Origin: Flavobacterium sp.
GTDB taxonomy: Bacteria > Bacteroidota > Bacteroidia > Flavobacteriales > Flavobacteriaceae
Length of the DNA: 64,000 nt
Assembly: GCF_046296355.1 (NCBI RefSeq)
Contig: NZ_JBKBLM010000004.1
Coordinates: 7,767 to 71,766 of the forward strand
Direction of reading: 5' to 3'
A model generated the notes under the pieces. That model searched no databases and was not told where the DNA came from. It saw only the letters and a list, made by a program, of their open reading frames with translations. A program made the position numbers and the translations under genes. Each line of letters begins with the position of its first letter. Position 1 is the first letter of the stretch. Below are positions 11,320 to 63,692 of the stretch, piece after piece.

Positions 11320-11354
11320 TTAGTATTAAGATTTGAGAATTAAGTATTAAGACT
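11320..11354 (+). repeat. Degenerate 7-mer tandem tract in the groES-groEL spacer
   Basis: TAGTATT AAGATTT GAGAATT AAGTATT AAGACT, starting 1 nt after the groES stop. Confidence 0.7.
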
Positions 11355-11374
11355 AAAAACAAACACAAAACATT

Positions 11375-13006
11375 ATGGCAAAAGATATAAAATTCGACAT
11401 TGAAGCACGCGACGGTTTAAAACGTGGTGTTGATGCCTTAGCGAATGCAGTAAAAGTGACTTTAGGACCCAAAGGAAGAAACGTAATCATTTCAAAATCA
11501 TTTGGTGGACCAACCGTAACCAAAGATGGTGTTTCGGTAGCTAAAGAAGTAGAATTGAAAGATCCTTTGGAAAACATGGGTGCGCAAATGGTGAAAGAAG
11601 TAGCTTCTAAAACCAATGATTTAGCCGGAGACGGAACAACAACCGCTACTGTTTTGGCACAAGCTATCGTAAAAGAAGGTTTGAAAAACGTGGCTGCTGG
11701 AGCCAATCCAATGGATTTAAAAAGAGGAATTGACAAAGCAGTTGAAGCTATTGTGGCTGACCTTGGCAAACAAGCCCAAGTGGTCGGTAGCGATTCTGAA
11801 AAAATAAAACAAATCGCCTCAATTTCGGCAAATAATGACGAAGTAATTGGGGAATTGATTGCAACGGCTTTCGCCAAAGTAGGGAAAGAAGGTGTAATTA
11901 CAGTAGAAGAAGCTAAAGGAACCGACACTTATGTAGATGTTGTTGAAGGTATGCAATTCGACAGAGGTTATTTGTCACCCTATTTTGTAACCAATCCGGA
12001 AAAAATGGAGGTGGAATTAGAAAGACCATACATTTTATTATACGACAAAAAAGTATCTTCTTTAAAAGAATTACTCCCTGTTTTAGAACCGGTAGCCCAA
12101 TCCGGAAAACCATTATTGATTATAGCAGAAGATGTGGACGGAGAAGCTTTATCAACTTTAGTAGTAAACAAATTGCGAGGTGCTTTGAAAATTGCAGCCG
12201 TAAAAGCGCCTGGATTCGGTGACCGAAGAAAAGCCATGTTGGAAGACATCGCTATCTTAACCGGAGGAACGGTAATCGCTGAAGAAAGCGGTTATACTTT
12301 AGAAAATGCTACTTTGGAAATGTTGGGAACAGCCGAAAAAGTAACTATCGACAAAGACAATACAACAGTAGTAAACGGTGCCGGAAATGCGGACATGATT
12401 AAAAATCGTGTGAACCAAATCAAAGCCCAAATGGACACTACAACTTCTGATTACGACAAAGAAAAATTACAAGAACGCTTGGCTAAATTGGCCGGTGGTG
12501 TTGCTGTACTTTATGTTGGCGCCGCTTCTGAAGTAGAAATGAAAGAGAAAAAAGACCGTGTAGACGATGCTTTACACGCCACTAGAGCAGCTGTAGAAGA
12601 AGGAATTGTTGCCGGCGGCGGTGTGGCGCTTTTAAGAGCAAAAAGTGTTTTAACCGATTTGAAATCGGAAAATGCCGACGAAGCTACCGGAATCCAAATT
12701 GTTTCTCGTGCGATTGAATCTCCGTTGAGGACTATCGTCGAAAATGCAGGTTTAGAAGGTTCAGTAGTCGTAGCAAAAGTATCCGAAGGAAAAGGAAATT
12801 ATGGATACAATGCCAAAACAGACGAATACGTTGACATGCTAAAAGCCGGCATCATCGATCCTAAAAAAGTAACTCGTGTAGCCCTTGAAAATGCGGCTTC
12901 AGTTGCCGGAATGATTTTAACTACCGAATGTGCTTTAGTAGAAATCAAAGAAGAAAACGCCGGTGGCGGAATGCCAATGGGCGGCGGAATGCCGGGAATG
13001 ATGTAA
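11375..13006 (+). CDS. groEL: Chaperonin GroEL
   Basis: '[13 protein letters not shown]', '[11 protein letters not shown]', GGM tail. Confidence 0.99.
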
Positions 13007-13044
13007 AATCTCCTTTGGAAATAAATTCCACTATTTAAAATACG

Positions 13045-13086
13045 AATACCAAAAACGTCTCGAAAAATCGGGGCGTTTTTGGTATT
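13045..13086 (+). terminator. Terminator hairpin after groEL
   Basis: AATACCAAAAACGTCTCG-AAAAAT-CGGGGCGTTTTTGGTATT. Confidence 0.85.
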
Positions 13087-13140
13087 TATTTTGTAAACAA
13101 AATTTTATATTTTTGAACAACAAACCAGATTTGTCTTGCC

Positions 13141-61583: not shown

Positions 61584-61610
61584 AAAAACCCGCTAAACGC
61601 GGGTTTTTTT
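61584..61610. terminator. Bidirectional terminator between the regulator and dnaG
   Basis: AAAAACCCGC-TAAAC-GCGGGTTTTT. Confidence 0.85.
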
Positions 61611-63588
61611 ATAGGTATGTGGAACGTATTCTTCCAATTTTGTTGGTTAAACTGACTTTTAACTTATTGTAATCGTTGATAGTCGCCATAATTTCTACTG
61701 AATCATTTTCTTCCTCAGCTTTGAAATTATTCATCAAATCCAGAATCAATTTGTTGATCAAATATTCGCGAAGTGAAATAATTGTTTCGGAAACATATTG
61801 ACTTACATTTTGGATTTTGGTTTTCACGTAAATATGTTTGGTTTCCCAATTGTGCAGCAACTCTTTTTCTTCAGACATTAAAATATCAGTAACCATTTGG
61901 GAATGTTCTGGCGACAGTTGCATTAAATAATGCTCAATATTGAACTCCTCGTTTTGGTTAAAATAATTGATTAAATCAGTATAAATTTCCTGAAATATCG
62001 GATTGGCCAATTCTACTTCGTCTTCTTGCAGACTGAGATAGATTCTCTGAAACACTTTAAAGGTATTGGTTTCCTTTTCTTCTGTCATTTCACCTTCTTC
62101 ATTGGCTTTTAGAATATAATCGTCGAAATCGGCTTCTTGTGAGCCGTATAGCAATAACATTTCTAAAATCTTTCGCTCTAAGTCATAAACGATATTGACT
62201 TTCTCTTGAGCAACTTGCAGTTCATTCTTAACCACTTCAAAAGCCTTTTGCTCGGTTTTGAGTTTTTTGCCGGCTTCCGAAATGTCTTTTTGCACTAATT
62301 GCGCTAGGGTATTTAGCAAAACCTGTTCAGAAATGTCCATAATTCGGGCCGTTTCCTGAATGTAGATTTCTCTTTTGATTCGGTCCGGAATTTTGGAAAT
62401 ACTCACCACCATATCGCGAATTAAATCGGCTTTCTTGATAGGATCATTATTGGCTTCATTCATCAAAAGTGACGCTTTGAACTGAATAAAATCCTTGGCA
62501 TTGTTTTCTAAATAGGAAACTAAATCTTCATACGAGTTCTTTCGCGCAAAACTATCCGGATCATCGCCATCAGGAAAAGTACAGACTTTTACGTTCATGC
62601 CTTCTTCCAAAATCAAATCGATTCCGCGAACAGAAGCACGCAATCCGGCGGCATCGCCATCAAAAAGTACGGTAATATTTTTGGTCAAACGATTGATTAA
62701 TCGAATTTGGTCAGGAGTCAAAGCCGTTCCCGAAGATGCAACCACATTTTCAATGCCGGCTTGATGCAACTGAATCACATCGGTATAACCTTCGACTAAA
62801 TAACAGTTGTTTTGCTTGGCAATGGCTTGTTTGGCATGGAAAATTCCATACAAAACTTTACTTTTATGGTAAATATCGCTTTCGGGCGAATTGAGGTATT
62901 TGGCCGCTTTTTTATCATTGGTCAAAATCCTACCACCAAAACCTAAGTTTCTTCCGGACAAACTTTGAATCGGAAACATGACTCTGCCTTTGAATCGGTC
63001 AAAATGTTTTCCGTCTTCTCTGGTGATGGTCAGTCCGACTTTTTCTAAGAATTCTAATTGGTAACCTTTGGCCAAAGCTTCTTTGGTAAAGGCATCCCAA
63101 GATTCGGGCGAATAACCTAAACCAAATTTGGCAATGGTTTCATTGGTAAAACCTCTTTCTTTGAAATAAGACAACCCAATGGCTTTACCTTCTTCGGTAT
63201 TTAAAAGCGTATCGTGGAAATAACTTTTGGCAAATTCCGATACCAAATACATGCTTTCCTTCTCATTGGCTTCAATTTTATCTTCTTGAGAAACTTCGGT
63301 TTCTTCAATCTCGATATTGTATTTATTGGCCAAAAAACGAATCGCTTCCGGATATGTAAAGTGCTCGTGTTCCATCAAGAAAGTCACGACACTTCCGCCT
63401 TTTCCTGAACTAAAATCTTTCCAAATTTGCTTTACGGGTGACACCATAAACGAAGGTGAGCGCTCATCCGAAAACGGACTCAAGCCTTTGTAATTGCTTC
63501 CGGCGCGTTTAAGTTGGACGAAATCACCGATGACTTCTTCCACGCGTGCGGTTTCAAATACTTTATCTATGGTTTCGCGGGTAATCAA
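61609..63588 (-). CDS. dnaG: DNA primase
   Basis: Zn-finger-like 'GLSPFSDERSPSF', 'FGGR', 'KYLNSPE', TOPRIM 'VEGYTD', 'FDGDAAG', 'DPD'; TTG start. Confidence 0.97.
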   Translation of the reverse strand: MITRETIDKVFETARVEEVIGDFVQLKRAGSNYKGLSPFSDERSPSFMVSPVKQIWKDFSSGKGGSVVTFLMEHEHFTYPEAIRFLANKYNIEIEETEVSQEDKIEANEKESMYLVSEFAKSYFHDTLLNTEEGKAIGLSYFKERGFTNETIAKFGLGYSPESWDAFTKEALAKGYQLEFLEKVGLTITREDGKHFDRFKGRVMFPIQSLSGRNLGFGGRILTNDKKAAKYLNSPESDIYHKSKVLYGIFHAKQAIAKQNNCYLVEGYTDVIQLHQAGIENVVASSGTALTPDQIRLINRLTKNITVLFDGDAAGLRASVRGIDLILEEGMNVKVCTFPDGDDPDSFARKNSYEDLVSYLENNAKDFIQFKASLLMNEANNDPIKKADLIRDMVVSISKIPDRIKREIYIQETARIMDISEQVLLNTLAQLVQKDISEAGKKLKTEQKAFEVVKNELQVAQEKVNIVYDLERKILEMLLLYGSQEADFDDYILKANEEGEMTEEKETNTFKVFQRIYLSLQEDEVELANPIFQEIYTDLINYFNQNEEFNIEHYLMQLSPEHSQMVTDILMSEEKELLHNWETKHIYVKTKIQNVSQYVSETIISLREYLINKLILDLMNNFKAEEENDSVEIMATINDYNKLKVSLTNKIGRIRSTYL

Positions 63589-63590
63589 AA

Positions 63591-63630
63591 TAGATTGTTA
63601 GATTGTTAGATTATTAGATTGTTAGAAATC
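63591..63630 (-). repeat. 8-mer tandem tract ending 2 nt before the dnaG start codon
   Basis: Plus strand TAGATTGT TAGATTGT TAGATTAT TAGATTGT TAGAAATC. Confidence 0.85.
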
Positions 63631-63666
63631 TTGAAAAGAAATCAAAGAGGGTAAATTTACACATTC

Positions 63667-63692
63667 AGAATTTAAAATTTAAAATTTAAAAT
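63667..63692. repeat. Short 7-mer tract next to the terminator upstream of dnaG
   Basis: AGAATTT AAAATTT AAAATTT AAAAT. Confidence 0.55.

Follow-up and report, generated by a model that had tools for sequence, protein, structure and literature searches.

The 64,000-nt stretch of Flavobacterium chromosome analysed here (hereafter, the window) holds, between murD and ftsW, a small gene for a four-helix-bundle (4HB) protein of the S23p / 23S rRNA intervening sequence (IVS) protein / Avd fold, enclosed by inverted arrays of tandem heptamers. With moderate confidence, this insert is interpreted as an intervening-sequence-type cassette residing in an mRNA operon rather than in 23S rRNA. What is new extends beyond the single locus: 4HB genes outside rRNA come, as a rule, with inverted, subfamily-specific heptamer arrays in operon spacers, where they alternate with arms-only hairpins. 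The protein family and its fold, IVSs with S23p open reading frames (ORFs), the heptamers of Coxiella, and an intergenic heptamer excess (convergent pairs included) in Xanthomonas, Nostoc, Beggiatoaceae, and a few Bacteroidetes were already known, and a full-text literature search found no paper tying S23p/4HB genes to intergenic heptamer repeats. An earlier sequence-only reading of the window had pointed to six short-period tandem tracts beside housekeeping genes, one inverted pair enclosing the 4HB gene, and had proposed a repeat-armed element that inserts at gene junctions and leaves its arms behind on loss, with the insertion mechanism acting in trans or being of a new kind.

The 4HB gene (48717-49106, minus strand; 129 aa) has the same orientation as murD and ftsW. 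Its ORF matched PF05635 (E 2e-13; 50.8 bits, cut-off 33.8), TIGR02436 (E 2e-21; 76.1 bits, cut-off 24), and, by sequence, PDB entry 2RLD (E 1.5e-24). The AlphaFold (AF2) model of the protein (pLDDT 93.4) aligned in Foldseek with 2RLD (BT_0352; TM 0.77), 2GSC (Xcc0516; TM 0.73), and Avd (4DWL/8UB7; TM 0.68-0.69), in agreement with the Avd-like four-helix bundle that had been proposed for the gene inside the inverted 7-mer pair. A sequence profile failed to reach Xcc0516 (2GSC). Judging from its homologues, the protein probably forms a homopentameric ring, since 2RLD holds five chains and pentamers have been reported for both Xcc0516 and Avd. At least 8000 relatives of the protein were found at E ≤ 1e-5, and no defence-system model in PADLOC was matched (best, 13.8 bits; chance level).

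The cassette fills the murD-to-ftsW spacer from stop to start (440 nt in the window, 429 nt in the occupied locus L006; comparison loci are denoted by L numbers). Coordinates of all tracts combine Tandem Repeats Finder (TRF) calls with direct reading of the letters. The 5' arm (49107-49135, minus strand; TRF 49105-49137), which reads TATAAAATATTAGATATTAAATATCAAAT on the sense strand, consists of AGATWTT-family heptamers at period 7 and occupies all 29 nt that separate the 4HB ATG (49106) from the murD stop codon (49136-49138). The 3' arm (48696-48741, minus strand; TRF 48694-48741) carries 5.9 copies of ATCTAAA/ATATTTA heptamers at period 7, ends at the ftsW ATG (48695), and overlaps the end of the 4HB ORF, the last ~8 codons of which lie within it. 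Together the arms constitute inverted repeat I1 (33 nt, 79% complementary), the longest within 600 nt anywhere in the window. Relatives of the protein are 120-121 aa in length, and the window ORF is longer because its usual stop is lost through a 2-nt indel and translation continues into the 3' arm (window 48717-48745; F. buctense, L083, 2835-2908). This arm has one ATCTAAA unit more than that of F. buctense. In three other cassettes, the gene is broken by an in-frame stop, frameshift, or truncation with the arms intact (L024 3583-3936, L073 3589-3990, and L101 2501-2875), a decay that echoes the one reported for the S23p ORF of Coxiella.

Using a single-sequence scan and an alignment scan with one genome per species, it was possible to gather 76 usable loci of 4HB relatives. 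A period-7 array was present on at least one flank in 70 of these loci and on both flanks in 51, compared to 3/23 for control ORFs of the same loci, and no period other than 7 was detected in the flanks of the 76 loci. More than half of the set (41/76) lies outside murD-ftsW, including upstream of queG, hisS, purH, araD, gatB, and others, and 35 of these 41 have arrays; the genomes concerned belong to the Flavobacteriales, Chitinophagales, Cytophagales, Bacteroidales, Ignavibacteria, Verrucomicrobia, Planctomycetes, Desulfobacterales, Syntrophaceae, and Patescibacteria, with at least eight phyla in the whole set. Measured alike, period-7 tracts occurred in 121/152 4HB flanks (~80%) and 27/291 gene-less junction spacers (~9%; p = 1e-51), bearing out the expectation that such tracts are enriched beside 4HB genes. 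The neighbouring genes were co-directional with the 4HB gene in 74/78 cases upstream and 74/78 downstream, at gaps (~67 and ~53 nt) that are essentially the arm lengths, consistent with the earlier proposal of a recurrent repeat-armed unit at gene junctions that leaves operons unbroken. The arms had a median ungapped complementarity score of 20 (controls, 7) and a median of 4.9 units upstream and 4.6 units downstream. The upstream arm carried TTAGA or TCAGA in 55/69 loci (G 16%, C 4%) and the downstream arm TCTAA in 56/70 (C 18%, G 3%); phased on GA, both arms give one unit, A-G-A-T-T-T-T/C (AGATTTY; complement downstream), and the position weight matrices agree. The persistence of this unit at 46-60% protein identity across phyla means that the arms are constrained in sequence and not only in their ability to pair.

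The repeat unit tracks the protein subfamily, with AGATTTT for the window type and other units elsewhere. Distant 4HB subfamilies were reached by plasmid tblastn and a home-made hidden Markov model (HMM). A gene of the BT_0352 type (2RLD type) between araD and araA has arms of TTGACAA x4 and TTGTCAA x4, further 2RLD-type units are AAAAATT or AATTGAC, and the groES-groEL-type subfamily has AAGCTnT (AAGCTTT) arms. Plasmid copies in Nostoc, Gloeocapsa, Planktothrix, Chlorohelix, and Treponema were also armed (TTTTAGA, GTCGGAG, CGTAAAT/CCCCAAT, and GGAAAGn). Across phyla, the gene has been passed on jointly with its arms, each subfamily with its own unit. Two subfamilies were observed in consecutive junctions of the division and cell wall (dcw) cluster in L052 (1742-2101) and L066 (1764-2111), where a 2RLD-type 4HB gene with AATTAAA/TTTAATT arms lies between mraY and murD and a window-type 4HB gene with TTTTAGA arms lies between murD and ftsW. 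On cyanobacterial/Chloroflexi plasmids, armed 4HB genes were also seen co-directional inside anti-phage defence operons, in L268, L270 (DUF1156-4HB-Swt1 HEPN) and L269 (drmD-4HB-MmeI), and upstream of cas1 (L272) and xisH (L273).

Occupancy of a given junction was patchy among relatives. For 80 Flavobacterium species, in which the murD-ftsW and yqeY loci were compared, the murD-ftsW spacer is occupied by the cassette in 13, with TTAGA-family arms at every occupied site. The cassette is missing from several of the closest relatives of the window (L001-L005) and present in F. buctense (L083), and the distribution requires at least 11 state changes on a MurD+FtsW+MurG+MurC host tree. A 4HB gene occupies the mraY-murD spacer in two species, and 4HB genes of another subfamily, with AAGC-type arms, occupy 6 of 80 groES-groEL spacers from metagenomic relatives, many of the others at this junction being arms-only hairpins of AAGC, TTAGAAT, or GTTTCAA type. 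The comparison of orthologous spacers, which had been set as a check on the sequence-only reading, thereby returned 4HB genes at all three of these junctions. Empty murD-ftsW spacers are very often hairpins with tandem-heptamer arms (18/65 at a strict threshold), the unit of which differs by lineage (TTGGTTA, CAGCTTT, GTTTCGT, GTTTCAA, and others) and is mostly unrelated to the cassette arms; a few hold a Flavo-1-like element instead. Cassettes, arms-only hairpins, and Flavo-1-like elements alternate at one junction. By eye, the murD-ftsW spacers of L017, L023, L040, and L050 are filled by the Flavo-1-like element ('..cctgct..atcagggctagg'), which also occurs upstream of yqeY in many species; Flavo-1 appears to be a dispersed, interchangeable spacer filler beside heptamer hairpins.

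The alleles at murD-ftsW are old. Between the window and L001, 45 nt are identical on each side of a spacer that is a 440-nt cassette in one and a 69-nt TTGGTTA hairpin in the other, and the same hairpin allele occurs in species with flanking genes only 78-86% identical. Cassette and hairpin alleles have diverged to roughly the same extent as the genes on either side. As spacers differ exactly from stop to start between identical flanks and their alleles are common to distant species, whole spacers must be old alleles that have been swapped, and homologous exchange through the conserved flanks is the likeliest route. Cassettes are also lost by deletion at direct repeats within the arms, and arm copy number shifts one unit at a time. 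L007, with a murD 97.6% identical to that of the occupied L006, retains only TCTAAAATTAAAA, which is what a deletion between the TCTAAAAT copies at the outer arm ends would leave, and similar remnants occur in L051 and L037, both of which, like L007, are sisters of occupied species. The 8-nt direct repeat TCTAAAAT flanks the L006 cassette, but it lies inside the repetitive arms. The suggestion that arms are left behind on loss is therefore upheld by the remnants in L007, L051, and L037 and does not extend to the empty murD-ftsW hairpins, which are mostly of unrelated units. Pure vertical inheritance from one murD-ftsW origin was ruled out by the 11 or more state changes, in line with the patchy occupancy anticipated for a gene not inherited vertically at one locus only. 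Such an origin is also contradicted by two non-monophyletic arm/protein lineages (ATATTAG/ATATTAA in L006, L014, L038, and L048; TTTTAGA in L024, L026, L029, and others) and by the unrelated spacer alleles common to distant species.

A DNA transposon would offer another account of this distribution. The arms would then be terminal inverted binding-site arrays (as in Tn7, Mu, and subterminal-repeat transposons) served by an enzyme in trans, and the arms-only hairpins would be derivatives resembling miniature inverted-repeat transposable elements or excision footprints. Inverted multi-site ends and the missing G:U bias of the arms (see below) fit recognition at the DNA level, related genomes contain multiple dispersed copies of the arms, and one protein subfamily is found at many junctions depending on the taxon (murD-ftsW, queG, hisS, purH, araD, gatB, and defence operons), such that non-homologous insertions must have occurred. 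A transposon is nonetheless quite improbable. As the sequence-only reading had noted, no recombinase, transposase, or reverse transcriptase (RT) is present among the 40 window ORFs scanned, and none was seen beside the cassettes examined. No near-identical copies were found at different loci, as paralogues within one genome share just 59% and 83% identity with the query (L151 and L114), nor was a consistent target-site duplication observed. The yqeY loci were occupied in 0/80, and old alleles exchanged exactly stop-to-start between identical flanks are the pattern of homologous exchange. Recent transposition is unsupported, and the visible turnover is by spacer replacement and by deletion at repeat microhomology; an enzyme acting in trans from elsewhere in the genome is conceivable.

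If the cassette is instead of the intervening-sequence type, its arms would pair into a long stem in the polycistronic transcript, as in a 23S IVS, and an RNase III cut inside the heptamer stem would sever the transcript and release the cassette RNA. The 4HB protein, as a pentameric ring, may bind its own repeat arms, with about one protomer per unit, as the Avd precedent suggests, and such binding could tune the processing or translation of the downstream gene. Both RNase III processing and protein-arm binding are steps that we infer by analogy with these systems. The number of units per arm (~5) fits a pentamer gripping the arms, and a grip of this kind would explain the conserved, subfamily-specific unit. 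The window itself contains no rRNA (Rfam). Using RNAfold, the cassette arms of the window were paired in both the minimum free energy and centroid structures. The arms of the F. anhuiense cassette (L125 1428-1462 and 1871-1911; TTTTAGA) matched six or more unlinked transcriptome contigs in each strain (runs X32, X35, X30, and X23), several of the matches being short arms-only hairpins with loops of 9-31 nt. This arm family is therefore dispersed, multi-copy, and transcribed, and its multiplicity causes the assembled RNA contigs to end at the arms. In one related Flavobacterium strain, the RNA contigs have an 86-nt spacer where the cassette would stand.

Several observations weigh against this interpretation. 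At 15 bp, the window stem is short and consists of A-U pairs only, and the 466-nt fold is no more stable than shuffles (z = -1.46). Arm mismatches had no bias of G:U over A:C (54 vs 57) and thus gave no sign that pairing in the sense RNA is selected for. Conservation of the arm sequence goes far beyond the needs of pairing, which argues for recognition by some factor, for which the 4HB protein would be a candidate. Several cassette copies are pseudogenes (L024, L073, and L101), the S23p ORF of Coxiella is likewise decaying and is considered untranslated (PMC4990558), and arms-only hairpins greatly outnumber cassettes and include many units for which a 4HB partner was not seen.

Two further tracts share a repeat core with the cassette. 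A single direct array of period 7 (40557-40592, minus strand; TRF 40560-40592; sense ATATTTAATATCTAATATTTAAAATCTAATATC) adjoins the yqeY ATG and has the unit type of the cassette 3' arm. Upstream of dnaG, a period-8 direct array (63589-63626, minus strand; TRF 63591-63626, 92% matches, score 65; sense ACAATCTA x4.5) adjoins the TTG start, and its core, ATCTAA, is that found in the cassette 3' arm. AATCTAAn arrays recur directly before the yqeY ATG in many species, with a full hairpin there in L262. No RNA structure is predicted for any of the single arrays that precede yqeY, murC, and dnaG. Under the cassette interpretation, the arrays upstream of yqeY and dnaG, with the ATCTAA unit of the cassette, could be extra targets or relics. 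None of the 80 yqeY loci holds any 4HB gene, even with a broad 4HB HMM included in the search, and the proposal that the yqeY tracts are 'empty sites' is unsupported.

Arrays of this kind raise the possibility of a regulon, with the 4HB pentamer as a trans-acting, TRAP-like post-transcriptional regulator, the cognate arrays before start codons (ftsW, yqeY, and dnaG) as operators, and the flanks of its own gene as autoregulatory sites. The shared ATCTAA unit next to the yqeY and dnaG start codons, the match between ~5 units per arm and a pentameric protein family, and the binding of RNA by the Avd pentamer through equivalent protomer contacts would all be accommodated, and MacGregor postulated an unknown regulator for heptamer arrays that precede start codons (PMC4679880). 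Such a regulon is considered somewhat doubtful, as the two arms are different RNA motifs, beyond one RNA-binding specificity, many cassette copies are pseudogenes, and arrays without a cognate 4HB gene in view are common. A broader proposal, which is possible but is advanced only tentatively, is that 4HB pentamers are sequence-specific binders of tandem heptamers that form, with their cognate arrays, a widespread self-perpetuating system of operon junctions, in which cassettes would be 'autonomous' and arms-only hairpins and start-codon arrays would be non-autonomous derivatives or targets. If true, a binder/array system would explain the ORF of the 23S rRNA IVS, the orphan 'four helix bundle protein' genes, which number in the thousands, and the heptamer excess known from the short tandemly repeated repetitive (STRR) sequences, GGGAATC, and TAACTGA.

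The remaining tracts of the window may belong to the same wider class of period-7/8 spacers as the cassette, and none of the five tracts other than the cassette has been shown to be a former cassette site. The groES-groEL spacer contains a degenerate period-7 array (ATTAAGA/TTTGAGA; 11320-11352, plus strand; TRF 11325-11352, score 35, 71% matches) that begins at the groES stop. Between the yqeY stop and tRNA-Arg lies an arms-only hairpin detected by TRF, with GAAGTAC/GTACTTC heptamer arms and no gene inside (40024-40102, minus strand). The arms constitute inverted repeat I3 (25 nt, 88% complementary) and the RNA fold reaches -31.2 kcal/mol (z = -6.2). The orthologous spacer is a hairpin in 38/80 species at a strict threshold, with 7/8-mer arms of many unit types (GAAGTAC in the window, CTTAGAnn in F. 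buctense). The murG-murC spacer is filled by a period-8 direct array without an inverted partner (TRF 8/16; sense ACTCAGYN; 46250-46288, minus strand), and the ACTCAG-type 8-mer array is kept in this spacer in L003, L005, L007, L014, and L026. No 4HB gene was found in the murG-murC spacers of the 80 ftsW loci. In L031, L048, L060, and L076, this spacer (210-330 nt) has a small ORF for a predicted membrane peptide of ~55 aa (e.g., MKTTFKGLIFLVIGILILLY...), which in L048 adjoins a CAATGAC/TTGAATT heptamer hairpin. Farther upstream of dnaG than the 8-mer array, a period-7 AAATTTA array (5.6 copies; 63653-63692, no strand assigned) adjoins the terminator-like hairpin of the preceding gene and has no complementarity to the 8-mer array. 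Occupied and empty states thus find support at murD-ftsW and groES-groEL, and not at the yqeY, murG-murC, or dnaG tracts; with the empty murD-ftsW hairpins mostly built of units unrelated to the cassette arms, an 'empty' or 'half' site of this cassette is not demonstrated for four of the six tracts.

A self-match scan of the window recovered tracts at period 7 (n = 5) and period 8 (n = 1) only, with none at periods 4-6 or 9-12, and every tract falls in intergenic DNA, which comprises 8% of the window. Together with TRF and the direct reading, the scan bears out the six intergenic tracts of period 7 or 8 that had been described. Across 689 kb of related Flavobacterium loci, tracts occurred at period 7 (n = 26), its harmonic 14 (n = 12), 8 (n = 5), 12 (n = 1), and 13 (n = 1), and block shuffles of the same loci yielded 0 tracts. 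Period-7/8 hairpins are a wider spacer class that exists without the gene, and they could be no more than generic repeat spacers, born by polymerase slippage and kept as operon punctuation, with the 4HB gene as a bystander. Suggested roles for such punctuation are G-poor unstructured leaders for translation without a Shine-Dalgarno sequence and hairpins that protect 3' ends or couple translation. Gene-less hairpins are indeed common in the yqeY-tRNA and empty murD-ftsW spacers, direct arrays adjoin start codons and are unstructured, close relatives differ by a one-unit indel, and a heptamer excess together with a slippage hypothesis has been published for Xanthomonas/Nostoc (PMC4692102) and Beggiatoaceae (PMC4679880). 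Slippage leaves unexplained the difference between ~80% and ~9% in flank enrichment, the inverted flank copies of fixed polarity, and both the constancy of AGATTTY over at least eight phyla (46-60% protein identity) and the dependence of the unit on the subfamily, and an explanation by generic spacers is therefore judged unlikely. None of these alternatives and the cassette interpretation are mutually exclusive.

The window is otherwise a housekeeping stretch of the Flavobacterium chromosome, with an FtsW 97-98% identical to those of Flavobacterium sp. J49 and F. buctense. Pfam identified groES, groEL, yqeY, ftsZ, murC, murG, ftsW, murD, and dnaG, and ARAGORN identified the tRNA-Arg. A seventh tract adjoining a start codon, which the sequence-only reading had not listed, consists of AACTACA x2.3 (27856-27871) before the ribulose-phosphate 3-epimerase ATG. 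Terminator-like, GC-containing hairpins occur after groEL (13034-13097), after the gene ending at 15498 (15494-15531), and after ftsZ (40739-40773); these lack heptamer periodicity, indicating that the window employs both kinds of hairpin. In Rfam, no family matched any tract, the only nearby match being a sub-threshold Flavo-1 at 40601-40659 (plus strand; 33.6 bits). Flavo-1 motifs above the Rfam threshold were found at 6255-6338 (plus strand) and 27725-27807 (minus strand). An S15-Flavobacteria ribosomal-protein leader (RF03161, 78.6 bits) is located at 23076-23143, upstream of rpsO and then pnp.

The association of gene and arms brings three separate puzzles into one frame: the ORF of the 23S rRNA IVS from the 1990s, the abundance of TIGR02436/PF05635 genes, and the excess of intergenic 7-nt repeats. 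'Function unknown' becomes a set of concrete questions, such as whether a pentamer binds five heptamers and whether RNase III cuts operon mRNAs at the stems. The association also flags a cryptic source of regulation inside essential operons, including the dcw cluster, groESL, ara operons, and defence operons, and provides a route to studying the exchange of non-coding spacers between species.

The STRR heptamers of cyanobacteria were reportedly described in 1990. An excess of 7-nt tandem repeats between bacterial genes was subsequently treated by Mrazek (2007, as cited in PMC4692102), and examples published in 2015 include the intergenic GGGAATC of Xanthomonas and GGGGAYT of Nostoc (PMC4692102) and the TAACTGA heptamers of Beggiatoaceae and some Bacteroidetes (PMC4679880). 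Like the arms described here, the published repeats (STRR, GGGAATC, GGGGAYT, and TAACTGA) are intergenic, have period 7, and often adjoin start or stop codons; they are often convergent inverted pairs (70 pairs in X. campestris) and vary in length between relatives (PMC4692102, PMC4679880). Arrays also flank the cyanobacterial 4HB genes in this set. The difference is that S23p / four-helix-bundle genes are nowhere mentioned in either paper.

Other short elements resemble the cassettes in part. Repetitive extragenic palindromic (REP) sequences, bacterial interspersed mosaic elements (BIMEs), and the REPINs mobilised by REP-associated tyrosine transposases (RAYTs) are likewise short, palindromic, intergenic elements inside operons that are dispersed, form hairpins, and vary between strains. 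However, the REPs of one genome share one sequence and need a RAYT, whereas heptamer units vary by site and stand in tandem arms, and no HUH transposase was seen with the heptamer elements. Integron cassettes (attC) also consist of a promoterless small ORF with imperfect inverted-repeat sites, co-directional and expressed from host transcription, with occupied and empty states both found. Unlike these, the 4HB cassettes have no integrase or attI, are single rather than arrayed at one platform, and possess periodic repeats on both sides.

Avd, the accessory protein of diversity-generating retroelements (DGRs), shares the fold and the pentameric barrel family (Foldseek TM 0.68 to 4DWL and 8UB7) at ~14% sequence identity. 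In a DGR structure determined by cryo-electron microscopy, an RNA stem-loop encoded adjacent to avd makes contact with each of the five protomers of Avd through one set of residues (bioRxiv 10.1101/2023.10.23.563531). In contrast to a DGR, no RT, template, or variable repeat was found among the window ORFs scanned or beside the cassettes examined.

The closest likeness is to the 23S rRNA IVSs of Leptospira, Coxiella burnetii, and others, which share with the cassette a PF05635 protein, a size of ~430-440 nt, an ORF in a loop closed by terminal inverted repeats, and a sporadic presence among relatives at one site with a decaying ORF. In C. burnetii, the IVS is 428-444 nt, a 28-bp terminal stem closes the loop that contains its S23p ORF, three or four tandem GACAGAT heptamers stand just upstream of the ATG in strain-variable copy number, and the RNase III cut has been mapped to the first of them (PMC4990558). 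These heptamers have the core CAGAT, as in the cassette, and both undergo copy-number slippage. The systems differ in that the IVS lies in an rRNA helix and its excision by RNase III has been demonstrated, whereas the cassette lies between protein-coding genes of an operon and would be excised by analogy. The heptamer arrays of the cassette are, in turn, longer and present on both sides of the gene, and the cassettes are accompanied by arms-only versions and single arrays.

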